DNA of 16,422 nt from Nitrosopumilaceae archaeon (GCA_965200155.1 CBDATR010000030.1:1-16422), one strand, 5' to 3'; positions 1-16,422 are shown, counted from the first letter of the stretch. Notes: generated by a model from the letters alone, not told the origin. Program-made: numbers and translations.

Positions 1-3000
1 GGTATAGTCTCGCCAACGACGCTATTGCCGGGCGGCGCTGTGGTAAGAGGCGCGCGACTGGGAACGACAGCATTAAAGACGGCCGGTACGACGAGTGCGG
101 CAGCCGCAGCCGCCGTAGGCATACAGGAAGCAATCCTGCAGGAGAATGTTAATGACAGGACTCTCTTTGAGAGTGCAACTAATGTGGCTGCGGGCGCACT
201 ACTTGGCGGTGCTTTGGGCGCGGGGGTGGGAGCCCTTGCTGGTCGAATACCCACGCCGCGGAGCTTTGATGAGGAGGTCATCGTACCTTACGAGGCTCCA
301 TCGGCTGTTCCCACGCCTGCCGTCGAGGCTGCGGACGACGCTGCTATTCCTCCTGGCATTGTGGTTAGTGATGAAGCTGGGCCGCCGATTAATCCCACCG
401 GCAGCGCTGCAGCAAAAGCTGCAGCCGATGGAGATATCAGACTAGATAGTGCGCTGGGTACGGCCACCTTCTTCGGTAAGGTATCCAGATACGCGGCGCT
501 CAATAGCCCCACAGTATCTGGCTACTTGAACGATATACCATCGATACGCGATAGCATGCGAGCCCTTGACAGTGGCGGCCTCCTATTCCGTGACGGCCAC
601 GGCAAGATTGCTGCGACTAGTGATGTGATTAGCAGGAAGAAGGCTTGGGAGGGACAGTACAAGAGAGCGCATGAGGCTAGCAAGGCAGCCATCAAAGAAT
701 ACCAGAAGTCGGTGACTCGCGCAGAGGGCCGTATGGGCAAGAAGGAGATAATGGAGCGTGCCTCTGATGCTATCGACGGAGGACTTGAGAAGTTCGACGG
801 ACCGTCCGTTGTTAAGGAGGTGGTAGAGGCTTATCAAAAACATGTGTTCCGCTCCCTTCTTCGAAGAAGCACAACGGCTAGAGTTTACTGATGCGGATAA
901 GTGGATGGATCCCAACACTTATGTGCCTCATAAAGTGCGTCGGCAATTGGTCACGGGGAAGCATGAAGAGTTTGTTGAGATATTGACGGAGCACTTTGCT
1001 GAGATAATAGGCGGCAAGGTTAATAGCGCGTTGAATAGACTGGAACAGCGGACAACAGGAAGACAGCTGGCTATCAAGGATTTGGAGGCGTCGCCGGAAG
1101 AGTTTGATGAACTGGAAGAGTTCTTAACGACGCAAATTGAGACGCTGAAGTCGAACCCTATGAAGATTCGCGGAATGAAGAAGCGTCTTGCCAACCTGCG
1201 CAAAGGTAAGGTTGCGCTTGAACGGAGGATGCAGAAGCAGAACGAGGAAATCTCGCGCGTTGAGGATGTGCAGGTTAGAGAGATTAACCGACTGATAGCG
1301 AAGGTGTCAAATCTCATCTCTCGTCCCTCTTTGATGGAGGAAGTTTCGGAACTTCTGCCAGAGGCAGGAATGTTCGCGTCAAAAGGAACTAAGCATCATG
1401 TTGAGACGAGAAGGCCTAAGAAGATAAAAGAGGCCAATCTTACAAAATTGGACGCGGATATTAAGAAGGTGCATGCTGAGGCCAAGAGGCTGGCTAAGAT
1501 TTTTCCCTCCTATCAGCATTATATTGATACTATTGATGAGAATCCTACTAGAACTAACAAAGCTATATATTCTTCAAGACTTATTAATGCAACGGAGGTT
1601 CACCTCGGTGAATTAAAATATCAAAGACAATCTGCACGAGGTCGGCTGGGTCATTTGCGTAAGGGTAAGGTAGGTTATGTTAAAGATAGTAAGGGCAAAG
1701 TTGTTCGTGATGGTGAGGGTAAACCTATTCGAGAGGAGCTATCAGAGAAGGAACTAGCTAATAGGATTAAAAACCTTGAGGAGGAAATAAAGCTACAGAC
1801 ACAAAAAATTGACTATATGGAGAAGGAAAAAAGCACGCTTGATAATTTTGCAAGTGATGTAAGGTATAGGACGCATAAGCGTAACGAGCTGACAAACAAG
1901 TGGTCAGACACATTGGAGACACGCCTCCTAGAGCTCAATGATGCAAAGTTGGCTATCGTTAGAAGGCGTGAGAGACGCTTGATGGAGCTGATTGAGGACA
2001 AGCAGAAATATGATCCTGAACTTGTAGCGAAGAGGCAAGAGGCATTTCAAAAAGAGATCGATCGCGACTATGGTAATGTGTATGCGCGTCTTGTCAAGCA
2101 AGGACTGTTGGATGAAGGTGGGGATATTGCAGGGGCAGCGTTTAATATAGGAAAGATAGCGCGTAAACAAGCCGAGGTCACCTCGTCTAAGTTCCTCAAA
2201 GATGTTAGCAGGATTCCACTTGTGTCAACGCTGTTGGAGCGTGGCCCTGAGTTAGACCGCACCCTTAACATCGACCCACTGAGGGTATGGTCTAATGGTT
2301 ATCGCTACATTGATTTTATGGAGCGCGATCTTGACCATCTCGCACGCATCTACACGCGTACGGTGGGTGCAGACTTTGAGATATATAGGTCATTCGGCTC
2401 CGTCAATCCCTTGGGTAAAGGATCTGAGTTTATCGAGCAGGTGAATAAACAAGTCGAAGACATGCGGGCTAAGGTGAAAGAGGAGCTTGAAGGAAAAGAA
2501 GCGGAAAAGGCACTTGCTCGTATCAACAATGAATATACACGAGGCGTTAAGGAGCTGCGTGAGGTTATAGAACGGGCGCGTGACATGCGAGGTATACCCG
2601 AGGATCCGGAGAGTATACCTTGGAGGGCTGGTAAAACGCTGCTCAATCTCAACACGCTGAGGTTGATGGGCGGCGTCGTGATCGCTTCGTTGGCTGATCC
2701 CGGCAACCTCAGTTAAGCGTCTGGGTGTAGAATCTATTTACCGCGACGGCCTGCGCCACATGTTTACCAACTTCAAGGCGTTGGAGGCGGGGGCTCGTGA
2801 AGCTCGCTATGCAGGAGCAGGACTGGACTTGTTGACGCACGCACGACTGCAAGCTATAACAGATACCTGTTGACGATTATGGTCTAGGTAATAAGGGTGA
2901 ACGCTATCTTGCAGTACTTGCACCAACAACATGGGCAGGATTGCGCTGTTTGATTTCTGGAATGCGTTTTGGAAACAGACTGTTGGCGCCCTCACAATGC

Positions 3001-3831
3001 AGCGCATTATTCATGACATCGATGGTGTTGCAGACTGGTAAGGGTAACAAGGCCGTAGCGGAGAAGATTCCTCGCCCATACTAACATTGGTGAGGAAGAG
3101 GCTAATGGCAATCCTGGGCATGAGATACAAGCAAAGGTGGCGCCTCCAATTATAAAGGCGTGCTTGTGCCCAATACTGAGGATTGGAAGGATCCACAGGT
3201 TGCGCAAATGTTTCGCCAAGCCATCGTGCGTATGGTCGATGATACCATCGTTACACCGGGTTTCGAGCGTCCCGCCATCATGGACGAGACTATGTTTGGC
3301 AAACTAATCTTTCAGTTTCGCAGCTTCGCATTCGCCTCCATTACCAAGACACTACTGTACAGCGCTCAAGAGTTGAAGTACGGCAACCTAAATATTTTGG
3401 CAGGTAGTGGAATGGCGCTTGCATTGGGTGCCGCGTCGTGGTATACATGGTCAATCCTTGCTGGGGAAGATCAAGCAGCCCGGATGCGGAATGCAGACTA
3501 TGATAAGTGGATGGATGAGTCTATCAACCGCAGTGGTCTACTTGGCCCGTTGCAGGAAATACTGAATATCGGATCTAAGATACCCGGGGTTGCGGATTTT
3601 GTACAGTTCTCAGGCGAATCGACCTCAAAGAGTTATCGCCCATTCGATGATCCTATCATTGATGCGGGTGGTCCCTCGGTTGGCTTTGTGAAGGACCTGC
3701 AGAAGGCAATTGGAACAGCGTCTGAACCTAATCAAACAACCTTTAAGGCTATACGGAGGTTGTCACCATTGGCGAATGTATCCTATATTCGCCCTGTGTT
3801 AAACACCCTGGAAGATGAGGTATACAAGTAA
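1..3831 (+). CDS. Large internal virion (ejection/core-type) protein, 5'-truncated by the window, interrupted by frameshifts (ORF-track pieces 25-891, 842-2716, 3160-3831)
   Basis: Frame 1 is open from base 1 (GIVSPTTLLPGG...). Gly/Ala-rich hydrophobic stretch (AAGALLGGALGAGVGALAG), long coiled-coil middle, and C-terminal motifs (RLMGGVVIASLAD, PNTEDWKD, DDTIVTPG, QFRSFAFAS, NRSGLLG) of the kind seen in large podovirus internal virion proteins. Pieces join into one reading frame if single-base indels at ~850 and within 2711-3140 are corrected. Confidence 0.65.
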
Positions 3832-4091
3832 TGGCTAGTGGAACTTTTTCAGCGGCTGGTACGAGTGCAACTGTCGTCATCAACACGAGAGCAGATGTCT
3901 CGCTAAACTTTAGTGGCACTGGTACTGTGCAATTGCAGCGCAACATCAACGGTGGTTGGCGGAATGTGCCGGATGGTAGGTGGACTGCCGACGCCGAGGA
4001 TGTTATCTTTAGTGGTAGTCAAGGGAGGCAGTATAGGCTACGCTGTACGGCTGTTGAGAGTGGCGAGACTATCGACTGGGAGATTAGCTGA
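3831..4091 (+). CDS. Small beta-rich putative virion structural protein (86 aa)
   Basis: ATG overlaps upstream TAA (TAATG), GAGG upstream; Gly/Thr/Ser-rich beta-strand pattern (GTGTVQLQRNINGGW, YRLRCT); located in the structural arm. Confidence 0.6.
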   Translation: MASGTFSAAGTSATVVINTRADVSLNFSGTGTVQLQRNINGGWRNVPDGRWTADAEDVIFSGSQGRQYRLRCTAVESGETIDWEIS

Positions 4092-4378
4092 TGTTGCTGG
4101 GGATTGTCCACAGCCCCGTTGGGTCTAAGAATAAAGGCACAGGCACAGGTACGGCGCCTGTGGTGGTGGCTGGCGGCGACTTCCTGCCGACGCCTGATAG
4201 AGATGAGGCAGCCGCAGAATACTTCTACCTAGGGTGGGCAGACGTTAACGGCGGTTGGCTTGTGAGAAGGATCGCACGAGCCGATGCCACGCGTGCCGAC
4301 GCTACTGCCAGTGACAATTCAAGCTACACCACGCTGGCCGAAGCGTGGCCCCACCGTGCTACCCTAACCTACGCTTAA
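4091..4378 (+). CDS. Hypothetical phage protein (95 aa), probably virion-associated
   Basis: TGATG overlap with the upstream gene, GGAG upstream; C-terminal W-x-x-RA-x-LTY motif; lies immediately before the tail fibre gene. Confidence 0.6.
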   Translation: MLLGIVHSPVGSKNKGTGTGTAPVVVAGGDFLPTPDRDEAAAEYFYLGWADVNGGWLVRRIARADATRADATASDNSSYTTLAEAWPHRATLTYA

Positions 4379-4389
4379 GGAGTCTAATA

Positions 4390-6984
4390 ATGTCTATTAG
4401 CAGCGCCATTACTAGCGCTTCCGGTGCCTCTCGCAATTCCACCTATGGCATACTTGATGTCAATGCTACGGTCACAGCTGATGGTACCATTGATGGTGAG
4501 ACTGTTATCATTCGATCGAACGACGGTGCCTTGCGGGCAGCCAGCAGTGCTGGTCTTATTATTAATGAGTCTCAAGTTCGCATACTAGAAAACGCTATAG
4601 GAGGGAGTGACCCGCTAACTTATCACTCCAATACTAGGAATGTTGATTTAGAAAACTCTTCTATAATCAATGAGGACCTAGCTAGTGGCTCTACTACTAG
4701 GCAGAACATTCGCGTGCGTCATCTCAAGCGTTGTGTTATAGCGGATCGCGATGAGCGCCAGAGGCTATTCGTCTATACCAAGACTGGCGCCATTCTGGAC
4801 AAGACGCTGTTCCGTGGTATTGCGGTATGGGAAATCGATGGTGTACCTGCCCAAGTCAGCGATGTTGTCGTGGATAATGTTGGGGCAGGGTTCCTGAATT
4901 GGGGACAAGCGAGGCTCGACTTTGTCGGTTTCGATGTCGCCAATATGAGTAACACTGCCGCGCATGGTTGGATTGGCAGCGGCAATTCTGGTAATAACTC
5001 AGTTTATAATTGGAACAAAGGCGCCAACTTTGATAACACGAAGATAGTGTTTGGGTCTAGCAATCCGCACTACTACGAGGGGTATACTATATGTTGGCGG
5101 TTTATCGACTCGAATGGGAATGCTGAAGGTGTCAGGCTTTCCTACTGGGATGATCGTGAGACTGAGAATACGCAGGCGTTACGCGCTATCTTCGATACTA
5201 ATAGTGACGGTGTGCCTGCGGGTATTAGGTATACGAGGACTGACACATACATAACGTCTTTGAGCGTGCCGGAAACGATGGACGCCCTGTATGCCGTCAC
5301 TGGTCGGTCCCACATTAATACGAGTGGAGCGCATCCACCCGGTGGCATTACAGGTGCGGGCACGACTATCAGGACCTATGATATGATAGATGTCACTCCG
5401 CGATATGAAGTGCGGTCATTTAAACACTTCCCTCTTCCTGCTATTGCCGGACAGGACTTTTCGATTGCTGCTCCTATAGGTAAGATTCACGGTAACTTCA
5501 CTGTCGACGAGCGCGTTGATGTTGAGCTTGATGTGGATCCAGCCATCACAGAGGATAAGGCGGATGTTGATGCCTACACCTCGATTACGACTAGCGCCCG
5601 GCTCTATCACGCAATGGTTGCGCATTGGGTTAACTTCCCGGAAGTGACAGTACCCAGACCCACCTGGAATAATGGTGTGGTTACAGGTAACCAGCCTATC
5701 GCAAGGCGTCCTATCCCATCGGCGGCGGTCACTATAGACCAAGTAGTATTTGAAACTAATTCTACATGGTCTGCAGATATGATCGCAGAATACTTCGTGG
5801 CTGGCAGACTGGTCACCATAAATGGTACCACCAAGAGGGTATATACTGCTGCTAGGACTGGTAATAGGTTTACGGTGGCGATTGATACTGGTATTACATG
5901 GGGCACCGGCAACTTGGTGATACCACTAAACCTGAGTGGATCCACATATACCTTCTCTAGCCATACAGCGCAGATAGCATCAGTTGACACAGCTCTTGAG
6001 TGGGCAGTGCAAGAGGATGTATCGATACCAGCCAATACTATATATAGATACGCTCCTGCTATTGAGTGGGACGGCACTCAGTGGTGGTTTAAGGTGGGGG
6101 CAGCGCATGGCAATGTTGCGGGTGCCTCTTTCACTGGCAATATCAACGCTGGTACTGCGGCTGTCACGCTCAATGATCTCCCAGTGACAGGTGTTGTTGC
6201 TGATAGCACCGGTACCACTTCGCAGGTCACAGTCACTTGCGCTGATAGCAATGCCCATATAGCATTATTCACAGCTACGGGCACGGAGAAAATTACCGGC
6301 GTTAGTAGTATTAGTGCAGGTTTGTCACTTACTGAAAGTGTTGATGGGGTTAAGGCAGTGGCAGCACGTCCCGGGTACAAGGCGCAAGTGCAGACGATTG
6401 ACGCAAGCTCAGGTGGTGTTATAACCGTAGCATTCCCCACACTTGAAAAGGACAAGATGCCTGATGGTACTGATATGTTCCCAACACAGGATCTTGACTC
6501 ACTGTGCACCGTAGCTTATATGGTGTCAGACATCACTAGTGTTGGCTTGAGAATTGACATCGGTGATGGGACTATTCAGGCGCGCGATGCTTATAGGGCC
6601 GCAGCCGAAGGCGCTATTACTAACGATGGTCTCAAATATCTAGCGTTCGGTGGCGTATCGCCCACTTACTTTGTTGACTTCGCCTCGAGCACCTTGGTTA
6701 TGAACCAGTCCAACAACAAGCTTCGCGCATTAGCCACAGGACAGGTGAACACGGAGATGCAGGCCACAGTGTTCCACCCTGACAATCAATCCATTGACGG
6801 GAGTAATGGTGTGGTGGCGAGGCGTGGTGGTATCAGACCCGAAGACCTGGCTACCTCCATAGCTTTCAACCTCGATATCGATCCTAACAGGCAAGAGCTG
6901 CAGTCGATAGGCGGTATGATTGTGGCTTGCCGAGATTATTCAAAGGCCGCTGCCCTACAAACTCAAAGTGAACCTTCAGGATGA
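4390..6984 (+). CDS. Tail fibre/tail spike (receptor-binding) protein, ~864 aa
   Basis: AAGGAG Shine-Dalgarno just upstream of ATG 4390 favours this start over GTG 4345. Thr/Gly/Ser/Asn/Val-rich, beta-helix-like periodicity in the N-terminal third; lies between virion genes and the lysis cassette. Confidence 0.65.
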   Translation: MSISSAITSASGASRNSTYGILDVNATVTADGTIDGETVIIRSNDGALRAASSAGLIINESQVRILENAIGGSDPLTYHSNTRNVDLENSSIINEDLASGSTTRQNIRVRHLKRCVIADRDERQRLFVYTKTGAILDKTLFRGIAVWEIDGVPAQVSDVVVDNVGAGFLNWGQARLDFVGFDVANMSNTAAHGWIGSGNSGNNSVYNWNKGANFDNTKIVFGSSNPHYYEGYTICWRFIDSNGNAEGVRLSYWDDRETENTQALRAIFDTNSDGVPAGIRYTRTDTYITSLSVPETMDALYAVTGRSHINTSGAHPPGGITGAGTTIRTYDMIDVTPRYEVRSFKHFPLPAIAGQDFSIAAPIGKIHGNFTVDERVDVELDVDPAITEDKADVDAYTSITTSARLYHAMVAHWVNFPEVTVPRPTWNNGVVTGNQPIARRPIPSAAVTIDQVVFETNSTWSADMIAEYFVAGRLVTINGTTKRVYTAARTGNRFTVAIDTGITWGTGNLVIPLNLSGSTYTFSSHTAQIASVDTALEWAVQEDVSIPANTIYRYAPAIEWDGTQWWFKVGAAHGNVAGASFTGNINAGTAAVTLNDLPVTGVVADSTGTTSQVTVTCADSNAHIALFTATGTEKITGVSSISAGLSLTESVDGVKAVAARPGYKAQVQTIDASSGGVITVAFPTLEKDKMPDGTDMFPTQDLDSLCTVAYMVSDITSVGLRIDIGDGTIQARDAYRAAAEGAITNDGLKYLAFGGVSPTYFVDFASSTLVMNQSNNKLRALATGQVNTEMQATVFHPDNQSIDGSNGVVARRGGIRPEDLATSIAFNLDIDPNRQELQSIGGMIVACRDYSKAAALQTQSEPSG

Positions 6985-7322
6985 TAGATAGTTCCCATAA
7001 CCAGATCGCCGCCATTGTTATAGGTATAGGCGCACTGATCTTCGCCTCCGAGCGTATCATCAATTTCATTACCAAGAGTCTGCGTGAAAGAGTAGACTCG
7101 CTAGAGAAACGTATCGCTAGCGTTGAGAGTAGTGACAAGGCTTCGGTTGAGATGTTGCAGAAGGTGTATGATCGCATCGAACACATGCGAGCTGAATCGA
7201 CGCAGCAACATGCTGACATGCGCAACTATGTGCATTCGGAGATACGAAGATTGGAAGAGAAATGGGGCGCTCGCTCCAGCGATATCTATGCTAAGATTAC
7301 TGAGTTGGGGAGAAGTAAGTAA
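6981..7322 (+). CDS. Membrane-anchored coiled-coil protein (113 aa), putative lysis accessory
   Basis: ATGA overlap with tail fibre stop; N-terminal hydrophobic helix (IAAIVIGIGALIFA) followed by heptad pattern (LRERVDSLEKRIASVE); upstream of holin/endolysin. Confidence 0.55.
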   Translation: MIDSSHNQIAAIVIGIGALIFASERIINFITKSLRERVDSLEKRIASVESSDKASVEMLQKVYDRIEHMRAESTQQHADMRNYVHSEIRRLEEKWGARSSDIYAKITELGRSK

Positions 7323-7486
7323 TGTTTTTGACACCCAAACCTGTCCGGGATTTGATAGCTGCGCAGACAGATAGGAAGGCGCATGGGATCATGGTTCGCA
7401 TCTGGGCCGCCGCCGCTTTCTACTTTATAATGGGCGTTGCTACGGGTATACTGGTAGATGAAAGCATCCGTCTGGTGATGTCATGA
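7322..7486 (+). CDS. Small single-TM protein (54 aa), not in the ORF track
   Basis: Hand translation MFLTPKPVRDLIAAQTDRKAHGIMVRIWAAAAFYFIMGVATGILVDESIRLVMS*; TAATG overlap at the start, ATGA overlap with the holin at the end, GGGGAG upstream; fills the gap exactly. Confidence 0.7.
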   Translation: MFLTPKPVRDLIAAQTDRKAHGIMVRIWAAAAFYFIMGVATGILVDESIRLVMS

Positions 7487-8007
7487 TAGCCGCAGCCCTG
7501 GGTTTCCTCGCCCCCTTCCTGCCCGACCTTATAGGTATGGGCAAAGGGTGGGTGGATCATAAGCAGGAATTGCAGATGATGAAGCTGCGCCTTGATCATG
7601 CTGCTCAAGAGCATGATTGGCGCATGGATTTGATACATGAGCAGGCGGCGTTGCAAAGTCAGATTGCTGCACGCAAGCCCCATCAGTCTTACGGTGTACA
7701 AATCCTGAATGCGGCACAGCATAACGAGGGTCTGATTAATGGTTGGGTATTTAGTATCGCTTTTATTATGTTCAGTGCGCTGGACTGGTTCATCAGCTCC
7801 GTACGTCCAACAGTCAGCTACTTCATCTTCGGAGTGTGGGGCAGCGTCAAGCTCGCCTCGCTGCTGTTCATCTATGAGCAAAAACAAGACCTCGTTCTTA
7901 CCTTGTCACACCCGCTCGCGTTCACCGACTTTGACCAAGAGCTGATGCTGCTGATCGTAGCGTTCTGGTTTGGCGATCGCACGAGGCGCCGGGTCATGGA
8001 AAAATGA
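7483..8007 (+). CDS. Holin, GTA-type 3TM family-like
   Basis: N-terminal amphipathic segment, coiled coil, then hydrophobic helices with characteristic SVRP and FWFGDR motifs and a basic C-tail; directly upstream of the endolysin. Confidence 0.75.
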   Translation: MIAAALGFLAPFLPDLIGMGKGWVDHKQELQMMKLRLDHAAQEHDWRMDLIHEQAALQSQIAARKPHQSYGVQILNAAQHNEGLINGWVFSIAFIMFSALDWFISSVRPTVSYFIFGVWGSVKLASLLFIYEQKQDLVLTLSHPLAFTDFDQELMLLIVAFWFGDRTRRRVMEK

Positions 8008-8450
8008 GCGAGGCCTTGCGGCTGGCTGCGGAATGTGCCAAGGAGTTTGAAGGGTTAAGCTTGGACCCCTATAGAGATCCGGTGGGGTATCCTACCATCG
8101 GGTATGGGCACCTGCTCTCACGTAATACTCACATTCCCCTTGCTCAATGGCAGTCGATTAGTATAGATGCAGCGCATAGCTTACTCGAGGATGATATGAT
8201 GACGGCAGTGGGTGCCGTGGCACGACTCATCAATGTGCCCTTGACAGCGGGACAAGAAGCAGCGTTAATAGACTTCTGTTTCAACTGTGGCAGTGGTAAC
8301 TTACAGGTCTCAACGCTACGCCGCGTCGTAAACCGTCAGGAATACGACGCGGCGCCTACTCAATTAATGCGATGGGTGTACGCCCGTGGTATGAAACTGC
8401 CCGGGCTGGTTAGGAGGCGTCAGGCTGAATGTGAATTGTGGCAGCGCTAG
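8004..8450 (+). CDS. Endolysin, GH24 phage lysozyme
   Basis: Catalytic E-x8-D-x5-T pattern (FEGLSLDPYRDPVGYPTIGYGH), FNCG, and C-terminal LPGLVRRRQAE. Confidence 0.95.
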   Translation: MSEALRLAAECAKEFEGLSLDPYRDPVGYPTIGYGHLLSRNTHIPLAQWQSISIDAAHSLLEDDMMTAVGAVARLINVPLTAGQEAALIDFCFNCGSGNLQVSTLRRVVNRQEYDAAPTQLMRWVYARGMKLPGLVRRRQAECELWQR

Positions 8451-8875
8451 CGTAACCCTGTCCGTTTTATGGACGAGGTTACATCAAACCTGTATCCCAC
8501 TTCCTCAGGAGTCAGCTCGGTGTAATGCGCGTAACCTTCCGGCACCCGACAGGTGAAGCTAGGATTCCGATGCTGCATTCGCGCGATGCCGATAAATAGG
8601 CTCCAGCCTAAACCAGACACAACCCTATGATGTGTATCGTGAGTGTAGAACCTAAGGCTGGGGCCTAATCGGCGTCTTGTTCGACTGAAGATTTGTTCAG
8701 TCATCCTTCCTTTCAACAACAGACTAATGCTGTACTTCCATGGGTGGTTGTGCATCCGCTCAGTCTTCTCACTGCACCCTGCTGGGTAGTGGTGCAGGTA
8801 CACAGTCAACCATCGGCCACGCAGACCGCGTCTAAGCATCCAGCCATTCTGCACATTATTAGAGATGTATCTCAT
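8447..8875 (-). CDS. Cupin-fold (HxH...H) putative metalloprotein/dioxygenase (142 aa)
   Basis: VYLHH...HNHPW...ISLLLKG..TE...HHRV...WSLFIG pattern; ATGA overlap with the upstream helicase-like gene, GGAGGTG upstream. Confidence 0.6.
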   Translation of the reverse strand: MRYISNNVQNGWMLRRGLRGRWLTVYLHHYPAGCSEKTERMHNHPWKYSISLLLKGRMTEQIFSRTRRRLGPSLRFYTHDTHHRVVSGLGWSLFIGIARMQHRNPSFTCRVPEGYAHYTELTPEEVGYRFDVTSSIKRTGLR

Positions 8876-10083
8876 CTCTTCTCACCTCCCTTGGCTTGTG
8901 GAATGTAGGCTGTCTTACCCTCAATAACTGTGGTCTTAATCATACCAGATCGCTCCATTATCTCAATGACATGTCTCACTTTGTACGCATCAGTCCTATC
9001 CATCAAGAATGCATTTAGCCTGGATGCAGCAACGCCTCGTTTACCCTCGCGTACGAATGTAGTCCACAGATAGTGAAACGCTTCACTAATGGTGGCGCTG
9101 TCACCGCCTGAAGACATCGTCTTGAAGATGTCCTCCATATTCGCCTCGGCCTCAGTCAACCAGCGCACCGACCTCTTCACATGCGCTTCCTCGATCAGCA
9201 TCGAACCGCCTTGGCTAGCACTAGCCACCTGACACAGCTTCAACACATGCGCTGTGCGACGCTCGTTGTAGTTACTAAGCTTGGGATGAGAGGGGCGCGG
9301 CTCACCTCCCGACAGGTGCCACCTGTTGATGTAATCCTTGGCATCATCGGCCCATTTAAATCTCCCTGACATGTTGTTAATGAGATTCAAATCTTTGTAC
9401 AGGCGTTCAAGGTTTAGGTTGGAGACTGTAAACAAGTCCTGTTGGATCTTCTCACCACTGTATACGAGTATGCACCGGGACATGAAGCCCTGTTCCCATG
9501 CCACTTCAGGCAGCAGCGAGTGTAGGAAGCCAGGCTGTGTGCCGCATAGCATATTCAGGTATGGATTTGGGATGTTAATCTTCAGACCACCACCGCGCTT
9601 CCTCTCCGTATACACTTTGCAGTCATACAAGTCGGTTAGATGAGACATGAACTCGAGGTCGTAGGATGGCAGCAGGACACCTAGCTCGTTAACCGAGGCG
9701 AGCAGCGCATTGTATTCGTACGCGCCCGACACTACTTTGGCGTCCTGCAAGCTGTCCGTAAGAGAGGCGCGGGACATGTTCGCCGAAGCTATGTGCAGCC
9801 CGTCGACCGAAGTCCACGCTTGGCGCACCCTGTCCGTCACCTCTGTCTTACCCACCCCAGGTCTCGCACACAGTATGACATAGAGATTTGGGTATAGGTT
9901 TGAACCGAGGGTGTGCACATGGACCTTGCGCTCCAGCACTCCAGCGATGCAGCTAATGGCACCCCATAGCCGAAAGCACTGGGGTGCAGTGGTCTGGTTG
10001 GTGGCTTCTATGAATGCATCAACCCAGTCCCCGAAGTCCCGTTCATACTTTTTGGAGCCCGGTTGGGTTGTGCTCTTCGTCAT
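8872..10083 (-). CDS. DUF3987/YfjI-like P-loop ATPase, putative replicative helicase
   Basis: Walker A ARPGVGKT, Walker-B-like LASVNE, GTQP, GFMSR arginine-finger-like motif, probable C-terminal winged helix; follows the polymerase. Start uncertain (10140, 10083, or ~10046 if one base is missing). Confidence 0.7.
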   Translation of the reverse strand: MTKSTTQPGSKKYERDFGDWVDAFIEATNQTTAPQCFRLWGAISCIAGVLERKVHVHTLGSNLYPNLYVILCARPGVGKTEVTDRVRQAWTSVDGLHIASANMSRASLTDSLQDAKVVSGAYEYNALLASVNELGVLLPSYDLEFMSHLTDLYDCKVYTERKRGGGLKINIPNPYLNMLCGTQPGFLHSLLPEVAWEQGFMSRCILVYSGEKIQQDLFTVSNLNLERLYKDLNLINNMSGRFKWADDAKDYINRWHLSGGEPRPSHPKLSNYNERRTAHVLKLCQVASASQGGSMLIEEAHVKRSVRWLTEAEANMEDIFKTMSSGGDSATISEAFHYLWTTFVREGKRGVAASRLNAFLMDRTDAYKVRHVIEIMERSGMIKTTVIEGKTAYIPQAKGGEKR

Positions 10084-11482
10084 AATCACCCCAGTTGCTT
10101 CCTGTCTTAGCTTCGACAGGAACATAGAATTCCCTGTCACCCTTCAATATGAGAGTATATGCGTCGGTCATGGTCTGTTTAATCTTGGGGATGAGATGTT
10201 CGTGTTTGATGGGTAGTTGGAATAGGATGCTATCATGTACTTGTACTAGTAGCTGGACGCTAGGGTAGGTGCGCCACACTGCTTCTAGGGCGGCATCGAT
10301 CTGATGTCCTGTCATGCTTTGTGGCTCGTAGGCTAGCATCTCACGAAGCGTCGCGTCCTCTTTGCTGCGTCCCCAGAACCTCCGCCTTCGACCGTACAAG
10401 GTGGTGAGTGTGGCGGGGTAATCGTTCATTTGTGCGGCGACCCACTGGTGCCACATCTTGATGCAGGGGAAGCTTTGGAAGTAGAGTCTTTGGAAGTTCT
10501 TGACAATCTGCGTCGGTATGCTGACTCGCTTTCCAAGTGATACAGGAGACGCAAAGTAGTTGGTAGCATGGCCCAATTTCTTCGCCGTTTGTCTATAAGA
10601 TTCATTACGATAGTAGGTGTCCAACACATCAGTAATCCCGGGCCACACAAGAAGACAAACAGAGGTATGTAGATCGCTGCTTTCACAAGCGTCAAGGTAC
10701 CTTCCAGCAGTATCTTTGCCAAATTCTTCCACGAAGAGTTCATAACATTTAGCTCCTACATTACGGCTATCAGCCTGTTCAAGATCCACATTCACCAACA
10801 CATGGCCCTTGTCAGCTACAAAGCATGTGCGCAACCTTCGATCAACGTTTTGCAGGTTCGTCCCCGAACCAAAATCAGAAGCCCTGCTTGCAAGTCTCCC
10901 AGTATTAGTACCGGCTACATTAAAGCTGGTGTAGAGACGATCGCCTCCCGTTGTCTTGTTGAGGAAGCCGATCTGCTTCCAGATGTCTCGCATCGCCGCT
11001 ATGAGGATGGCGAAGGGAATGGCTGTGTAGTGTTGTTTCAATTTCTCGAGGGCCTCGAGGTCAACAGAAGGAGCCCACACACCCTTGGTATTGCGCTTCT
11101 TTACCGTTGGCAGCGCCAAGTATTCGTAGAACAGTTCCTTTACTTGCTTAGGGCTCCGATAATTAAACCTTCGGTTAAAGACGCCATCACAGAGCATCTC
11201 ATATTTACTAAGTAGGTTGGCGTGATCTGCGGTGAGCCGCTTCAATAGCCGGGCTACCTGGGCGGGGGACATGCGAACACCTCGCAGCTCCATCTCCATG
11301 ATAGGCACCTGCTTTTGCAGCGCGAACCGATAGGTCCAGCCAACCTCACTAGGGGCACGCTCTATCTGTTCATGCAAGTCAGTGAAGAGCTCATAGGTGA
11401 CAAGACAATCAATGCCGTTGTAGAACCACGCAACCTCGTCCTTGTTGCGTGGCACAGCCCTCGTTAAATCATAGACGGTCAT
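10043..11482 (-). CDS. Family A DNA polymerase, polymerase domain plus ExoIII helix only (479 aa)
   Basis: SPKQVKELFY, TNTGRLAS, NLQNV, motif A (DLEQADSR), motif B (RQTAKKLGHATNY), TLYGRRR, motif C (QVHDSI); N-terminal YNGID matches ExoIII YxxxD. Confidence 0.93.
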   Translation of the reverse strand: MTVYDLTRAVPRNKDEVAWFYNGIDCLVTYELFTDLHEQIERAPSEVGWTYRFALQKQVPIMEMELRGVRMSPAQVARLLKRLTADHANLLSKYEMLCDGVFNRRFNYRSPKQVKELFYEYLALPTVKKRNTKGVWAPSVDLEALEKLKQHYTAIPFAILIAAMRDIWKQIGFLNKTTGGDRLYTSFNVAGTNTGRLASRASDFGSGTNLQNVDRRLRTCFVADKGHVLVNVDLEQADSRNVGAKCYELFVEEFGKDTAGRYLDACESSDLHTSVCLLVWPGITDVLDTYYRNESYRQTAKKLGHATNYFASPVSLGKRVSIPTQIVKNFQRLYFQSFPCIKMWHQWVAAQMNDYPATLTTLYGRRRRFWGRSKEDATLREMLAYEPQSMTGHQIDAALEAVWRTYPSVQLLVQVHDSILFQLPIKHEHLIPKIKQTMTDAYTLILKGDREFYVPVEAKTGSNWGDYDEEHNPTGLQKV

Positions 11483-11943
11483 TCAAAGATAGCCTTTTGA
11501 GGCTTGCGTCCTTGCATCTGATACTTGCCGGTGTATGTGTTGAGAGGAGGTGATGATAGTTGATGGAACACGATCTGCGCTATGGGTTCGCCAGCGTGTA
11601 CCAGCACATCCAACTCACTATGATTCGTCGCCTCAAGGGTGAGCCATCCTTCCCAACCTGGTTCGATCACTGTGTTCTGCAGGGCGAGACCAAGGCGTGC
11701 CCATGTGGACTTGTCGTGTACGAATGCGATCAGATTATTGGGCATCACGAAGCGCTCCCATGACACCAGCAATGCAAAGCCACCCGCACTGATGGGAGTA
11801 TCTTCACCATTGCGGATGTCATACCCTGCGCTTGACAGCCCGTAGCTCTTACCGTAGGCTTTCATCTTCTCCAAGTAAGCGGGGCGTACCATATGATCCT
11901 CCAGATACGGTGTCAGGCATCTGTCACTCAACACTGTCATCAT
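11479..11943 (-). CDS. dcd: dCTP deaminase (trimeric dUTPase superfamily)
   Basis: LSD, SYGLSSAGYDIR, DKSTWARLG (catalytic S/R), IEPGWEGWLTLE (catalytic E), PIAQIVF, YTGKYQ. Confidence 0.88.
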   Translation of the reverse strand: MMTVLSDRCLTPYLEDHMVRPAYLEKMKAYGKSYGLSSAGYDIRNGEDTPISAGGFALLVSWERFVMPNNLIAFVHDKSTWARLGLALQNTVIEPGWEGWLTLEATNHSELDVLVHAGEPIAQIVFHQLSSPPLNTYTGKYQMQGRKPQKAIFE

Positions 11944-12944
11944 CAGTCTCCTTTCTTATCTGTCTTGCTCTCTTGTCGCATGAACTTCCACGCAGGGCGA
12001 TTGGTGTACATACTCGCGAGATAGCCGAGGCCTTTCTCAAGCTCGGGCTCGAGGGTGTGGTGCATCAGCATTGTGTCGTGTGCCCAGTTGTTGCACGCAA
12101 TGCCCATCGCCTGCCACAAATACTTCATATCATAGGCGAAGTTTTGGCCGATCAGTCTCTTGCTCTCACACACCTGCTTCACTATGCGCCATGCTTCAGC
12201 CTCGAGCCCTGCGTTGGGCCAGTATGATTCGTTGGGGCGCTTAAAGAATGGGATGCACACTGCCTCTGTGGATGAGATGGCGAAGCCTATTTCTGTGATG
12301 GTGCCACCCTCGGTCTCGATATCGCACACTACATACGGCGCCGGTGCGATGCGTACCAAGTAGTATAGCATTAGCTCTTCTATACCCCTATCATCTGGCG
12401 ACGGGACGAACAGCTGACTGGTTGTCTTGTGGATGTGAGGGCTGCCCATCTCCTGCCGTGCTTTGGCTAGGTCCATCATGAAGGTGGGCATGAGTTTGTA
12501 GTTGCGCAGGACCATGGCAGGGTGCCAGGTCGCCAAGCACTTCTGTCCGTCCTTCGTCTCGAAGAGATAGCCTCGCCTCTTCGCTATGCCTGCATTCCCC
12601 GTTAATGCCCACAATGCTGTGCTACCTAGTGCTAGCACCAGATCTGATTTGTAGGCGTGCAGTTCCTCTTTAAGCCTCACCAGCTCCTGCTCATATTCTG
12701 CTCGCACATATTTGCCGGGCGCCAGCGGTCCGTACCCCTTAATGCCCTCCTCTTTACTCGCGCAAAGGCTCTCGATGTTGTTGCGTTCAGGCCGCAGGTT
12801 AAACACATTGGTCATGTGGCTGACATCCTGTGGAGCGATGCCTACCTTTTGCATGACCTGTTTGAGGAGCCAGCCACTGGGACCTACGAAAGGCAGGCCT
12901 TGCAGTTCCTCCTGCTCACCCCACGCCTCCCCCACCACCAGCAC
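11943..12944 (-). CDS. Family 4-like uracil-DNA glycosylase domain fused to a partial DnaQ-like 3'-5' exonuclease (N-terminal half of an SPO1-type DNA polymerase)
   Basis: UDG motifs VGEAWGEQE..GLPFVGPSG, TNV...RP, VLALGSTA, TWHPAMVLR; then ExoI CDIET, ExoII GQNFAYD, HDTMLMHH and GLGYLAS; stops before an ExoIII motif. GTG start overlaps upstream TAG. Confidence 0.88.
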   Translation of the reverse strand: MLVVGEAWGEQEELQGLPFVGPSGWLLKQVMQKVGIAPQDVSHMTNVFNLRPERNNIESLCASKEEGIKGYGPLAPGKYVRAEYEQELVRLKEELHAYKSDLVLALGSTALWALTGNAGIAKRRGYLFETKDGQKCLATWHPAMVLRNYKLMPTFMMDLAKARQEMGSPHIHKTTSQLFVPSPDDRGIEELMLYYLVRIAPAPYVVCDIETEGGTITEIGFAISSTEAVCIPFFKRPNESYWPNAGLEAEAWRIVKQVCESKRLIGQNFAYDMKYLWQAMGIACNNWAHDTMLMHHTLEPELEKGLGYLASMYTNRPAWKFMRQESKTDKKGD

Positions 12945-14203
12945 TATTCACCTCTTTCCAATATGGAGCCGAGATGTAGGCGTGCGTCTTTGTAGATGGC
13001 TGGGTCAATCTCGAGACCGAGAGCATACTTGGACTGGTTGATACGCGCTGCCTTGACGGACGATGCACTGCCGCAGGTGGGGTCGAGCATCCTAGTCTCG
13101 CCACGCTTAACAAACATGTTGAAGAAGTGCATCAGTATATAGAAAGGCTTCTCATTGCGATGCCACTTATTAGACACAGGGCCAGCGTATACATCGTCCA
13201 CCACTCTCCTTATGTGACGGTCACCTACCGTGGCGATGAGCGCAGTCTCATACACATGCCTCGCATCGTAGTATGGGTTTGGTGACACGCCCTTGCCATC
13301 TGACTTGTGCCAGATCAGGGGTGTGTGTTTGACTGTGAACCCAGCGTCCTGCAGCAGCACACGCGTTTCTTGTAAGTATTTGGTGGCACACCAGAACATC
13401 AGGTGCGAGTTCGGGGCTATGATACCCATGTCCCGAGCCTCTGATAGACCGAGGATGAGACGCGTGAATATGTCGAAGCTATCACTGTATTGGGACTGAT
13501 GTTCTGATGATAGCTGATCGCCTGACTTGTCGATTTCGATACCGTAGGGGAAATCGCAATGGATGAAGTCAAACGGCAGGCCTTCATAGGTATGTATCCA
13601 CTTGAGGAAATCCTCATTGAGGAGCTCACAGGGTCCACGAACCACCTCCTTACTCTGCGTCGGTGCAGGACTGCTGGATAGGTCGAGTGCATTTAGAGCC
13701 TCACGCTGATCCCGCATCTTATTCTTGGCCATGGCCTTGAGTGCGGATCCACGCTTATCCAGACCCGCGATGTTGTTGTCATCCTTCACCGCTTGCGCGA
13801 TATTGAGATCTTCACTTAGCTTGGACTTACTCACACCCAGTTCGAGGGCTAGTTCGACGACACTGATGCCGGGTTCCTCGTTGCGACGCATCTCGCAGTA
13901 CCGGTACACAGCATCCGTATGCTCTTGCCATGTCAGGTTCTTACGCTTTGCGTTCTCCTCGAGCTCAATCAGTTCCTTCTCAATCTCCGTCAAGTTAGAT
14001 AGGAGGCGGGTCTCGATCATATCCATGCCGAGTGCTTTGCATGCACGCAGCCTGCGTTCCCCCGCGATCAGTACATTATTCTCATCGACTACGATAGGGT
14101 TTATGAGGCCAGCGTTTGCGATGGACTTAGCCAGCTCCTCGATGTCGCCCATATCAGAACGCTGCCTTTCTGGCAGCACTCTCACCTCTTCAATTGGTAT
14201 CAC
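12944..14203 (-). CDS. ParB/Srx N-terminal domain fused to a beta-class amino (N6-A/N4-C) DNA methyltransferase
   Basis: ELAKSI...GLINPIVV...LIAGERRLRA...EENAKRKNL plus HTH (LALELGVSKSKLS); C-half has DFIHCDFPYG (motif IV variant), LIWHK, HRNEKP and LDPTCGSAS (motif I variant), GLEID, in motif IV-before-I order. Confidence 0.85.
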   Translation of the reverse strand: MIPIEEVRVLPERQRSDMGDIEELAKSIANAGLINPIVVDENNVLIAGERRLRACKALGMDMIETRLLSNLTEIEKELIELEENAKRKNLTWQEHTDAVYRYCEMRRNEEPGISVVELALELGVSKSKLSEDLNIAQAVKDDNNIAGLDKRGSALKAMAKNKMRDQREALNALDLSSSPAPTQSKEVVRGPCELLNEDFLKWIHTYEGLPFDFIHCDFPYGIEIDKSGDQLSSEHQSQYSDSFDIFTRLILGLSEARDMGIIAPNSHLMFWCATKYLQETRVLLQDAGFTVKHTPLIWHKSDGKGVSPNPYYDARHVYETALIATVGDRHIRRVVDDVYAGPVSNKWHRNEKPFYILMHFFNMFVKRGETRMLDPTCGSASSVKAARINQSKYALGLEIDPAIYKDARLHLGSILERGE

Positions 14204-14230
14204 TCTCAGTTACTCCGGCTCTCAATTATG

Positions 14231-14261
14231 AAAGGAAAGGGAGGGAGCCGAAGCTCCCTCC
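14231..14261 (-). terminator. GC-rich hairpin with C(UUCG)G tetraloop, probable weak intrinsic terminator
   Basis: Minus strand reads GGAGGGAGC-TTCG-GCTCCCTCC then CTTTCCTTT; perfect 9-bp stem 8 nt after the SSB-like stop codon; U-tract interrupted. Confidence 0.7.
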
Positions 14262-14269
14262 AGAAAATG

Positions 14270-14767
14270 CTAGCGAATATCCTCACCCATCTGTGCGAGT
14301 GAAAGCGTACGGCTGATGCGTACATTCATAGCCTCTGGGTTGTCCTTACGAGGCTCAATCGTCAACTGTCCTATGAACTCCATGCCCTCGATCCTGTCGA
14401 GCTGTGACAGCAAAGACTCATCATCCTCTGCCTCGATCCCAAGGAGGTTGATGAAGTTCTGAAGCTGGAAGCTCGTCTGCTGATTGCTCCTTTCCGCATC
14501 TGGATCATCAGACTGATTGAAGATGAAGGTGTGCCTCACATTGATTGTCTCAACGCTCGCCCCGTAGTCGTCCAGCTCCCTATCATCGACATCGACCTGT
14601 GCTGCCAGTGCCTTGCAAGGGACTTCAAGGAAGGCCCAAGCGCCATCTCGTGATTCTCGTGTAGTGTGTTTTCTTGATACGACAAACCTATAGTGTCCAG
14701 CTGGAGGATGTGGAGGGCGCTTGATGTCTGCTTTCTTTGCTTCGAGTCTTTCTAGTATACCAACCAT
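14270..14767 (-). CDS. Putative single-stranded DNA-binding protein (DUF669-like)
   Basis: PPAGHYRFVV N-terminal motif, acidic composition, beta-rich pattern, position directly after a Sak4-like ATPase and before a hairpin; AAGGA upstream. Confidence 0.55.
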   Translation of the reverse strand: MVGILERLEAKKADIKRPPHPPAGHYRFVVSRKHTTRESRDGAWAFLEVPCKALAAQVDVDDRELDDYGASVETINVRHTFIFNQSDDPDAERSNQQTSFQLQNFINLLGIEAEDDESLLSQLDRIEGMEFIGQLTIEPRKDNPEAMNVRISRTLSLAQMGEDIR

Positions 14768-14773
14768 CTATGT

Positions 14774-15514
14774 TTATCCTTTAAGTGTGTTGAAAATGTC
14801 GACCAATCCTGTAGAGATTGGGTAACTAGGCTTCAGCCTTTTAGGGGCTGAATTCTTAACATTAGTAACAGCGTCACTAATGGTAGAAATGACATGCTTC
14901 ACCTGTCTACCAGATCCTAGCTTGTCATACCTAAATACCTCGTTGAAATGTCGAGGTATCTTATCACCCAGTGCTTTGCCTACACTGGATGCATAGCCCC
15001 GCACCATATCTTCGGATACTTCACGGTAGTCTATGTGTGTTATTGTTATTGAGTGGCAGGGGAATTCGCTATGTGTGAGGACCTCGATGAATGGCTCGAC
15101 CACCTCCTGCGCATTCATGTAATGCGCTCGGTTGTCCTTGAGGCCTGGGTTCTGTGCCTTCGCCCAGATCAGGCACGCCCTGCCTAGTGCAGTCAGGCTG
15201 TCCACCACTATCACATCATCGGGCGCGGCTTCCTTCTGCCACTTCTCCAGCGTCATCCCAATCTGCGTCAGCGTATGTTGTCCCTTCAAAGGTTTGGCCC
15301 CACCCACACCAATGCTGAACTTGGGGGCCATGCTCTCAATGATCAGTTGTCCAGCTCGCTCGGGGCACTCATCCTTTATAAAGTTTCGTAGTATTTTTGA
15401 GCCATTTTCGAGGTCTAGGAGACGGAGGGTGTAACCTGCGTGTATGAGGGATATGAGACTGCCAGTCTTACCGGTGCCTGTATCACCTAGCAGGAGGAGA
15501 TGGTTCTTGTCCAT
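14774..15514 (-). CDS. AAA_24/Sak4-like ATPase (putative recombinase)
   Basis: Walker A GDTGTGKT, LDLENG, Walker B VIVVDSLT, ITH motif; 246 aa; between nuclease and SSB-like gene. Confidence 0.75.
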   Translation of the reverse strand: MDKNHLLLLGDTGTGKTGSLISLIHAGYTLRLLDLENGSKILRNFIKDECPERAGQLIIESMAPKFSIGVGGAKPLKGQHTLTQIGMTLEKWQKEAAPDDVIVVDSLTALGRACLIWAKAQNPGLKDNRAHYMNAQEVVEPFIEVLTHSEFPCHSITITHIDYREVSEDMVRGYASSVGKALGDKIPRHFNEVFRYDKLGSGRQVKHVISTISDAVTNVKNSAPKRLKPSYPISTGLVDIFNTLKG

Positions 15515-16416
15515 CAGTCTCTCACCTCTCTCACGAAGGTTTGCTGTGATGGAGGCAAGGCCTCAGTCAGGTAGGCCTTGCGCATGGCTGGTGATATGCT
15601 GCACACCTCACGGAACTCGCAGCCTTGGAAGTAACCACATGCGCTCGGGTTCTGCGGCCAGTCCGCTTCATTGTGGGGATCTTTGTCTTTGACTGCCTCG
15701 ATCTCGAGCGTGACGCCATTCAACCATTCGTCTAGCTGATCCTTGGTGCGTGAGACCACGCCGCGCATCATCTTCACGCTCCCGCTCTTCATCACCTGCA
15801 CTGCATCGATGAGGAAGCGAGCCGCCGGCTTGTTGAAGACAATGTAGGCGGCGAGCATGTATAGACTCATCTGGTTATTGGGAGTCCATGTCTTGAAGTA
15901 CATGGGACTCAGCGATGACTTCGTTGTCTTCTGATCGAGCAGGATAAGCTCGTCGTCTCGCTTGAGGACGAGGTCAAGGCGGCCACAGAAGGTGAGGTTG
16001 TTGGTGTCGAAGAGGAAAGATTGTTCCGTACGCCATACACTCGGACCGTCCAGCTCATAGTACTGGTCGAAGTATTCGACGAGCGCAGTGATCAATGCCT
16101 TGCGAGTCTTCACTTCTTCAGAGGGGAACTGCTTGCTATAATACTTACTGTTGCGCATGGCGAACATGATAGTGTTGTTCAGTGTTGACTCGTAGTCTGG
16201 ATCACGATGCTTGTAGAAGTATTCGATGGATGAGGCGAACAGTCCACCGAAGGCCAAGTCGGCGCTCGCAGTCTTGGACCTCCAGCCCTGCAGGATTGTA
16301 TAATAGTAGTAGCGTTTGCATTTTTGAAGGGCAGTGATTGATGATGCATTCCATATAGTCTGTCGTCCATCATCATCAAACATCTTGTAGTCGTATCTAT
16401 TCACAGTCTTGCTCAC
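15514..16416 (-). CDS. PD-(D/E)XK Cas4/RecB-like exonuclease with putative Fe-S cluster
   Basis: SSITALQKCKR, E...GRLD...DQKT, QMSLY, C-terminal CGYFQGCEFREVC (1+3 Cys arrangement). Start is at the window edge and uncertain. Confidence 0.85.
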   Translation of the reverse strand: MSKTVNRYDYKMFDDDGRQTIWNASSITALQKCKRYYYYTILQGWRSKTASADLAFGGLFASSIEYFYKHRDPDYESTLNNTIMFAMRNSKYYSKQFPSEEVKTRKALITALVEYFDQYYELDGPSVWRTEQSFLFDTNNLTFCGRLDLVLKRDDELILLDQKTTKSSLSPMYFKTWTPNNQMSLYMLAAYIVFNKPAARFLIDAVQVMKSGSVKMMRGVVSRTKDQLDEWLNGVTLEIEAVKDKDPHNEADWPQNPSACGYFQGCEFREVCSISPAMRKAYLTEALPPSQQTFVREVRD

Positions 16417-16422
16417 AGCTTG

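Follow-up and report, generated by a model that had tools for sequence, protein, structure and literature searches.

A family A DNA polymerase encoded in two genes and cut between its ExoII and ExoIII motifs, from a podovirus-like contig

The DNA analysed here, referred to below as the window, is a complete contig of 16,422 bases (C30; CBDATR010000030.1, positions 1-16422) from a 51-contig, 2.38-Mb metagenome-assembled genome (MAG) filed under Nitrosopumilaceae archaeon (GCA_965200155.1). Judged from its genes, the window reads as part of a podovirus-like phage. Its minus strand carries three overlapping genes that are the subject of this report: a gene for a uracil-DNA glycosylase (UDG)-like domain followed by part of a 3'-5' exonuclease domain (UDG-exo), a deoxycytidine triphosphate (dCTP) deaminase family gene (dcd), and a gene for an ExoIII motif followed by a family A DNA polymerase (PolA) domain (Pol). 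With a probability of roughly 0.8, we read these as a replication-module UDG-PolA whose two polypeptides come from a single unspliced message, with the ExoIII helix on the second subunit, and in which an old cut has turned into a gene slot.

In the arrangement that we propose, the cut lies on the surface of a DEDDy 3'-5' exonuclease domain, in the loop that leads from ExoII to ExoIII. Subunit 1 would consist of the UDG-like domain and most of the exonuclease fold, with the ExoI Asp and Glu and the ExoII Asn and Asp; subunit 2 would begin with about 20 residues and the ExoIII helix (Tyr21, Asp25), followed by the thumb, palm and fingers. This helix is predicted to insert into the incomplete exonuclease fold of subunit 1, where it would both complete the proofreading site and hold the two subunits together. 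The three overlapping genes would be translated from a single unspliced message by coupled termination and initiation. The gap between the polymerase genes would have become a slot for small genes, including homing endonuclease and nucleotide-pool genes, and its occupant in the window, dcd, would be co-expressed with the polymerase.

Position of the cut

The UDG-exo gene (11943..12944, minus strand) has a GTG start codon and encodes a 333-amino-acid (aa) protein, P0001, recognised from its open reading frame (ORF), Pfam and PHROG 17. Residues 196-328 match the Pfam exonuclease model DNA_pol_A_exo1 at 27.7 bits (cut-off 23.6), but the match covers just profile positions 14-141 of 173, and the end of the model has no counterpart in this protein. 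Translation places the ExoI motif, DIET, at residues 208-211 (D208 and E210; 12312..12323) and the ExoII motif, NFAYD, at residues 268-272 (N268 and D272; 12129..12143, coordinates computed from the translation). P0001 thus has the ExoI DxE and ExoII NxxxD of a DEDDy (DnaQ-like) exonuclease domain, and the ExoIII YxxxD that a single-chain DEDDy enzyme would hold is not on the same polypeptide. D208, E210, N268 and D272, and also D290, are invariant in all 24 aligned UDG-exo halves, which share 32-52% identity with that of the window. HMMER, run exhaustively against 1.84 billion cluster representatives, returned 9465 hits at E <= 0.001 (711 at E <= 1e-30); in the best 150 of these, D208 and E210 are both present in 149, N268 in 145 and D272 in 148.

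The Pol gene (10043..11482, minus strand) encodes P0003, a protein of 479 aa recognised from its ORF, Pfam, PHROG 17 and NCBIfam PRK05755. It belongs to PolA: residues 80-466 match Pfam DNA_pol_A at 115.5 bits (cut-off 34.3), and phmmer aligns the protein with the Taq, Klenow and Bst structures at E values from 4e-20 to 1e-14. All 21 aligned Pol halves (35-57% identity to that of the window) share D233, K301, Q414, H416 and D417, which we take to be the catalytic residues of the palm and fingers (motifs A, B and C). Also invariant among them are Y21, G23, D25 and C26, of which Y21 and D25 belong to the ExoIII motif, YNGID (residues 21-25; 11408..11422, read directly from the DNA). The ExoIII Tyr and Asp of DEDDy exonucleases take no part in the polymerase site, so the best explanation for their strict retention by the Pol protein is selection for an exonuclease site common to both proteins.

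Two approaches do not place the ExoIII motif: the first 60 residues of P0003 alone have no Pfam match, and the phmmer alignments to solved structures begin at residues 28-29, just past it. It was placed instead through PRK05755, a fused relative (L030) and the alignments. In PRK05755 (DNA polymerase I), P0001 corresponds to positions 318-440 and P0003 to positions 454-887, starting at residue 17 and including YNGID; in PHROG 17 ('DNA polymerase'), the two proteins cover positions 483-789 and 806-1238, respectively. In L030, the Pfam exonuclease match continues to position 172 of 173. Together, the completed exonuclease model of L030 and the PRK05755 match through YNGID locate the cut inside the exonuclease domain, between ExoII and ExoIII. 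The window therefore falls outside the class of split polymerases typified by phage S-SBP1, which are cut at the boundary between a complete exonuclease domain and the polymerase domain.

The dcd gene (11479..11943, minus strand) occupies the gap between the two polymerase genes and encodes P0002 (154 aa). This protein matches Pfam DCD at 72.9 bits, the dCTP deaminase family PHROG 1663 at E 3.1e-42, and NCBIfam TIGR02274 at 98.6 bits (cut-off 92.8), the last over model positions 66-174 of 180 only, its N-terminus being shorter than the model. These matches point to a dCTP deaminase family protein, which could be either monofunctional or a bifunctional dCTP deaminase/dUTPase. Both junctions can be read directly from the DNA: the UDG-exo stop codon overlaps the dcd start codon in TGATG (11941..11945), with AAAGGAG a few bases upstream, and the dcd stop codon overlaps the Pol start codon in ATGA (11479..11482). 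The three minus-strand ORFs, the DIET, NFAYD and YNGID motifs and the two overlaps had all been described in a first-pass annotation made from the window alone, and ORF calling, translation and inspection of the DNA confirm each of them.

Residues 1-151 of P0001 (12492..12944) form a family-4-UDG-like domain that matches Pfam UDG at 60.4 bits (cut-off 24.3) and aligns with solved family-4 UDGs, with GEAWGEQEE at residues 5-13 and HP at residues 141-142. P0001 begins at the GE motif, and the N-terminal 35-53 residues of the solved enzymes have no counterpart in it. Apart from G9, the motif residues G5-E13 are invariant in 24 of 24 sequences. The domain scores below the curated cut-offs for both active family-4 UDGs (TIGR00758, UDG_fam4; 73.7 bits against 125.3) and UdgX (TIGR03914; 74.3 bits against 189.95). 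Despite its strong conservation, a role as a glycosylase is thus only putative. The order of domains is that of a UDG-PolA (UDG, exonuclease, then polymerase in the next gene but one) and the proteins are homologous to the polymerase of Bacillus phage CP-51. In the window these three domains are not in one chain: they are divided between two ORFs, with dcd between them.

Conservation of the cut and contents of the gap

A UDG-exo homologue was found at 70 loci: 27 viral (IMG/VR), 33 on metagenome contigs, seven on GTDB genome contigs, one in Caulobacter phage Kuura, one in a Vibrio phage, and the second copy in the assembly that contains the window. Of the 59 loci that are distinct, 42 have both halves, nine have a stop at the same point on a contig that ends before the Pol half, and eight are cut off by contig ends. 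The split lies in the same ExoII-ExoIII loop in 39 of the 42 loci with both halves, just past a conserved Trp-Lys and about 20 residues ahead of a Y-N-G-L-D-C motif; the other three (L002, L030 and L062) are fused. Both genes are neighbours, in unchanged order, at every one of the 39 split loci. One of these, L029, was counted as split after inspection of its DNA, in which the halves are separated by a stop codon, 2 nucleotides (nt) and an ATG in a different frame. The best 150 of the 9465 representatives agree with this pattern: their lengths run from 107 to 468 aa, none is of fused length, and 149 terminate 5-18 residues past the column of Trp319-Lys320, the exception being the 107-aa fragment. 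The first-pass annotation had named recurrence of the split point and conservation of YNGID in homologues as checks on its reading; both recur, the Tyr and Asp of the motif in all 21 aligned Pol halves.

The same cut is found in Kuura, a cultured, plaque-forming phage, whose UDG-exo and Pol halves are gp29 (Kuura_029) and gp26 (Kuura_026), respectively. The portion of the Kuura paper available to us names only 'a DNA polymerase' (PMC9959647), and in the GenBank record the UDG-exo half is annotated as a 'hypothetical protein'.

These data bear on whether the polymerase gene of the window is simply a pseudogene in decay or a product of mis-assembly. In favour of such a reading, the 16.4-kb window comes from a 51-contig MAG, and one relative, L072, looks degraded. 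Against this, a second contig of the same assembly has the same layout at 98% identity, and a 2905-nt contig from an independent DNA run, which may be the source sample, spans 11451-13200. Further, the cut recurs in 149 of the best 150 representatives and at 39 distinct loci, the catalytic residues are invariant, and a phage that forms plaques, Kuura, has the cut as well (PMC9959647). We consider decay or mis-assembly extremely improbable. L072 itself lies on a 4.7-Mb Actinomycetota MAG contig; its matches to the UDG-exo gene and to the ParB-methylase gene (discussed below) are fragmented and its Pol match starts only at residue 58, and it is probably a decaying prophage.

A maximum-likelihood tree was built by a quick method from 44 rows, omitting L072, L075, L076 and L077 (by a match-length filter) and 11 duplicate loci. 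Thirty-eight split rows fall on one side of a branch with a Shimodaira-Hasegawa-like approximate likelihood ratio test (SH-aLRT) value of 100. Split L029 groups with fused L030 and L062 (SH-aLRT 99), which indicates that the split or fused state has changed at least twice. The cut is old and common to a large clade of mostly uncultured phages, and it seems to have arisen or been lost on at least two occasions.

Breaks at other positions are seen in relatives. In ctLwi270 (L075, MW202554), a UDG-PolA relative is encoded at 1727-2986 and 3138-4364 and cut approximately 20 residues past ExoIII. In Vibrio phage VS-ABTNL-3 (L002), with ORFs at 2909-4615, 4615-5169 and 5147-6043, the cut is within the polymerase domain, around a 184-aa ORF. 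The UDG-PolA family thus appears to be fission-prone at several sites. Two Pol halves (L068:7535-9778 and L071:6420-8687) have an in-frame, stop-free insertion of approximately 285 residues at the position of P0003 residues 306/307. The insertion begins with Cys directly after LGHG and ends with VTGN ahead of SNY; by these features, it looks like an intein with an endonuclease-sized middle.

At the 39 split loci, the stop of the first half and the start of the second are between 2 nt and approximately 2 kb apart: nine gaps have no cargo and 30 contain it. Cargo was typed by blastp clustering of the gap ORFs and by Pfam scans. A DUF7768-like family is found in nine loci (confirmed in L017 and L048 at E ~1e-22; the member in L068 has no Pfam match) and a DUF1937 family in eight (confirmed in L006 and L012; the L012 cargo also has a weak match to DUF4406 and a nucleoside 2-deoxyribosyltransferase match at E 0.044). 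Endonuclease-like cargo comprises HNH genes in two loci (L025, HNH_3 at 40.1 bits; L017, weak) and LAGLIDADG-like genes in two others (L042 and L069, both below the cut-off, with a visible LAGLLEGEG motif). MazG-like genes are present in two loci (L020, at the cut-off; L051, weak) and an FkbM methyltransferase gene in one (L014); the remaining cargo includes many small ORFs of no assigned family. In no other locus was dcd detected by tblastn at E <= 1e-5, and among these loci only those of this assembly have it in the gap.

The range of gap lengths and the variability of gene content support the earlier suggestion that the split point serves as an insertion site for cargo genes, and the homing endonuclease genes found there suggest one route of gene entry. 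The window itself does not have the form of a gene put in pieces by a homing endonuclease, as its gap gene is dcd. The final gene of the gap is often the DUF1937 or DUF7768 one, which shares 4 nt with the start of Pol, as dcd does in the window. Genes of these two types recur in 17 of the 30 cargo-bearing gaps (for example, L006:4851-5168, L007:4305-4640, L009:7357-7746, L012:6996-7376, L013:1453-1806 and L025:3123-3464), and their products might be a polymerase accessory factor rather than random cargo.

One chain or two, and the predicted assembly

It could be argued that the three ORFs are processed to a single polymerase chain, whether by RNA splicing with dcd as an intron, by protein trans-splicing through a split intein, or by translational bypass or frameshifting. 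Phage polymerase genes commonly contain introns and inteins; L068 and L071 have the intein-like insertion at another site; in Pseudomonas phage LUZ24 an endonuclease VII gene is annotated between two later polymerase pieces; and where halves are 2 nt apart in different frames, fusion by a frameshift is possible. In the window, however, no Rfam family was detected at E <= 1 in 9800-13200, except for a 19-nt, chance-level match to a small RNA (E 0.53), and the gap is fully coding, with the dcd ORF overlapping both neighbours, unlike a group I or group II intron. No intein or Hint domain was found at the cut in a Pfam scan of the window's proteins. The tail past Trp-Lys (5-18 residues) and the head before ExoIII (approximately 20 residues) are far too short for split-intein fragments; by contrast, the insertion in L068 and L071 is easily seen.

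Evidence from relatives and from RNA libraries points in the same direction. Throughout the clade, the cut retains its stop and start codons, and in the nine split loci with an empty gap the halves are directly adjacent. Two of these were read, L029 and L011: in both, the stop codon is followed by 2 nt and an ATG in a different frame, so there is nothing to splice (L029 also has a purine-rich stretch ahead of the ATG). Contigs from two metatranscriptome libraries are colinear with the window across the dcd/Pol junction (11376-11643) and the UDG-exo/dcd junction (11753-12005), and no splice joints across the locus were found in four public runs. We know of no precedent for a translational bypass of 461 nt. 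Processing to one chain is therefore very improbable, and the statement in the first-pass annotation that no intron or intein signature is visible is borne out by the Rfam and Pfam searches, by the short tail and head, and by the colinear RNA-library contigs.

Whether the two proteins could assemble was examined with a complex model of P0001 and P0003, built in three runs from our own alignments (A1, 24 rows; A2, 21 rows). The interaction prediction score from aligned errors (ipSAE) was 0.86 (0.87, 0.85 and 0.86 in the individual runs), compared to 0.22 for the best control; this mark is reached by 58 of 80 solved complexes and by two of 110 mismatched pairs. Contacts agreed by at least 94% among runs, and the predicted local distance difference test score (pLDDT) of the partners was at least 86. 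In the predicted interface, P0003 residues 1-7 and 17-37 (the latter comprising the ExoIII helix) lie on P0001 residues 204-210 (the ExoI strand), 217-232, 265-278 (the ExoII helix), 287-301 and 313-323. Such a geometry would be expected of a reconstituted exonuclease domain. Modelling of the two proteins had been put forward in the first-pass annotation as a check on their association; the model passes its controls and sets the ExoIII helix against the ExoI strand and the ExoII helix.

An alternative is that the products form no stable enzyme: the Pol protein would act as a proofreading-free polymerase and the UDG-exo protein as a separate accessory or repair factor, with an exonuclease fold that is incomplete or completed in some other way. 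PolAs that lack an exonuclease domain do exist, such as CCPol, which in the text available to us is described as retaining only three exonuclease helices (PMC10201439). In addition, the binding of the two halves is a prediction, and any amount of cargo can part their genes. Four observations argue against this alternative. Y21 and D25, which have no role in the polymerase site, are invariant in all 21 Pol halves; 149 of the 150 representatives retain the ExoI and ExoII carboxylates; the genes are neighbours in the same order at 39 of 39 split loci; and the complex model, in which the ExoIII helix is central to the interface, passes its controls. On this evidence, the absence of a stable enzyme is unlikely.

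Several points weigh against the two-subunit reading. The result of the complex model may reflect memory of solved single-chain PolAs (Klenow, Taq and Bst), and so likeness rather than binding. The calibration counts for the ipSAE mark hold only roughly for runs made from our own alignments. Binding of the halves and their exonuclease activity are both predictions, made from sequence and model. The evidence from RNA libraries is weak: the Logan contigs are short, have a depth of 2-5 and cover 11 and nine of 30 bins in the two libraries; they could derive from library DNA, a rare spliced form could be missed, and the parts without RNA contigs carry no weight either way. The tree was made by a quick method, gave long-branch warnings and is unrooted in effect. 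Among the 39 split loci, three have flaws: L072 is fragmented within its 4.7-Mb contig, the tail of L067 is aberrant, and the first 77 residues are absent from L028. Finally, an advantage from the split or from the slot is a matter of inference, as persistence of the cut could merely mean that re-fusion is hard.

When these points are set beside the conservation of the cut (39 of 42 loci), the invariant Exo motifs, the lack of any intron or intein signal and the complex model, the proposal of the first-pass annotation, a two-subunit PolA with a proofreading site completed in trans, is supported at the level of sequence and prediction.

Related systems, genomic setting and implications

Split phage PolAs are already known, with the cut at the boundary between the exonuclease and polymerase parts; what is new here is a cut inside the exonuclease domain of a UDG-PolA, together with a variable gene slot. 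A 2023 paper presents natural fission, with the cut between domains, as observed "for the first time" in PolAs, and UDG-PolAs are described in the same paper, in the parts accessible to us, as single chains (PMC10201439). As in the window, the PolA of T7-like cyanophages (S-SBP1-like) is produced from two neighbouring genes, with the exonuclease and polymerase parts as separate proteins, and in both cases the parts are predicted to reassemble like the single-chain enzyme, by AlphaFold2 for the S-SBP1-like proteins and by the complex model for the window (PMC10201439, accessible text). In the S-SBP1-like phages, as far as that text describes them, the cut separates the exonuclease domain from the polymerase domain, has a frameshift origin, and lies between overlapping genes with no cargo and no UDG (PMC10201439); in the window, the cut is inside the exonuclease domain, ExoIII is on the Pol protein, the enzyme is a UDG-PolA, and the gap serves as a slot for varied genes. 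OM43 phages (PMC10580990) and an uncultured cyanophage lineage (10.1101/325100) are likewise credited with split polymerases in the available portions of the respective reports, which give no position for the cut.

The LUZ24-like phages (Bruynoghevirus) are described, in the accessible text, as having DNA polymerase parts I and II with approximately ten small genes between them (PMC3890496). In LUZ24 (NC_010325), as in the window, unrelated gene content lies between the exonuclease and polymerase subunits (several small genes in LUZ24), which provides a precedent for a gap filled with cargo. Unlike P0001, however, LUZ24 gp25 (169 aa) contains all three exonuclease motifs, including an ExoIII-like YCLQD, and has no UDG-like domain; the cut falls past a complete exonuclease domain. 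The cut in ctLwi270, which is an uncultured UDG-PolA relative, is likewise past ExoIII.

The order of domains in the window (family-4-UDG-like, 3'-5' exonuclease, PolA) is that given for single-chain UDG-PolAs of the SPO1-type and N4-like phages in the text seen (PMC10201439). Single-chain UDG-PolAs were examined from Bacillus phage CP-51, Microcystis phage Mel-JY34, ctMlz233 and vir526. Mel-JY34 and ctMlz233 share the neighbours found in the window, with ParB/methylase upstream and a DUF3987 primase downstream, and vir526 has a primase gene downstream and only hypothetical genes upstream. Whereas these enzymes are single chains of 779-925 aa, that of the window is encoded as two chains of 333 and 479 aa.

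The nrdA gene of phage Aeh1 is reportedly split by a free-standing homing endonuclease gene, mobE, into two separately translated genes whose products reassemble. The window resembles this system in that the gene for an essential enzyme is in two parts, and endonuclease genes are present in the gap of relatives L017 and L025 (HNH) and L042 and L069 (LAGLIDADG-like). It differs in that the gap of the window contains a metabolic gene, nine of 39 gaps are empty, and the cut, far from marking a recent insertion, is ancient and found throughout the clade. In the literature covered, with supplements and subscription journals lying outside that coverage, we found neither a split UDG-PolA nor a PolA divided between ExoII and ExoIII.

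On the minus strand, the replication module of the window encodes an exonuclease, a Sak4-like annealing protein, a fusion of ParB-N and a methyltransferase, the products of the three genes described above, a DUF3987 primase/helicase-like protein and a small cupin. The ParB-N/DNA methyltransferase fusion gene (P0005; 12944..14203, minus strand; Pfam ParB_N with a weak N6_N4_Mtase match) is directly upstream of the UDG-exo gene, with an overlap of 1 nt. This position is kept across the clade: matches to P0005 are found by tblastn upstream of the UDG-exo gene in most related loci. The DUF3987 gene (P0004; 8872..10140, minus strand; Pfam DUF3987 and PHROG 14296, 'DNA primase') is the downstream neighbour, also in a position kept in related loci. 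The cupin-like ORF (8447-8875, minus strand) matches PHROG 4786, 'cysteine dioxygenase', at E 8e-10 and ends the module at the point where divergent gene blocks meet. The plus strand contains internal-virion-protein-like genes and an endolysin. Its ORFs 1-891, 842-2716 and 3160-3831 match successive parts of phrog_342, 'internal virion protein with endolysin domain' (profile positions 327-590, 742-852 and 1015-1224), which may represent a virion protein encoded in pieces or three diverged paralogous segments.

Contig C19 of the same assembly contains replication genes in the identical three-gene layout, at 98% protein identity to the window. Across its replication genes (L004, L078 and L079), protein identity to the window is 98-99.8%. 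The pair suggests either two variants of one phage in one MAG bin or a duplicated assembly. A PHROG scan of the other ORFs of the window and of 10 upstream ORFs of C19, both contigs being partial phage genomes, identified no thymidylate synthase or dUTPase gene that could use the dcd product, a negative of little weight for incomplete genomes. In a nucleotide search of 50,697 phage records, the 2.9-kb region had no close relative; the only matches were of approximately 100 nt in dcd, at 72-79% identity, in N4-like and other phages. Public runs labelled as sponge metagenome, and as two coded organisms, contain at least half of the sampled words of 10043-12944, and two metatranscriptome libraries from the same study contain small parts of it. 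The fraction of these words present is 0.39-0.61 in six non-RNA runs and 0.12-0.17 in two RNA runs.

A further reading, which we hold to be rather doubtful, is that the cut has been kept because it is useful: the replicase would be modular, with a UDG-like/proofreading subunit that is dosed separately and attached through the ExoIII helix, the gap would be a coupled 'expression bay', and the loop would be a preferred site of PolA fission. If this is true, enzymes in the bay (dCTP deaminase here; MazG and DUF1937/DUF7768 proteins elsewhere) would be made in step with the polymerase or would be riding on it, fidelity and deoxynucleoside triphosphate supply could be tuned by the ratio of the subunits, and the same loop, cut at least twice independently, would be a preferred point of fission in PolA. 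That proofreading or uracil surveillance could be detachable or tunable, as the first-pass annotation suggested, is speculation.

In this clade, PolA is cut inside its proofreading domain, and one catalytic site would therefore come from two polypeptides, an arrangement retained in no fewer than 149 clusters (50% identity). Such enzymes provide a natural test of how much of the exonuclease fold a polymerase needs in cis, as well as a fragment-complementation pair that is ready for engineering, and the gap is a defined hotspot for small-gene exchange beside a phage replicase. The example of Kuura, in which the UDG-exo half is recorded as a hypothetical protein, indicates that current annotation misses half of the polymerase; as a cultured phage, Kuura also makes the question accessible at the bench.

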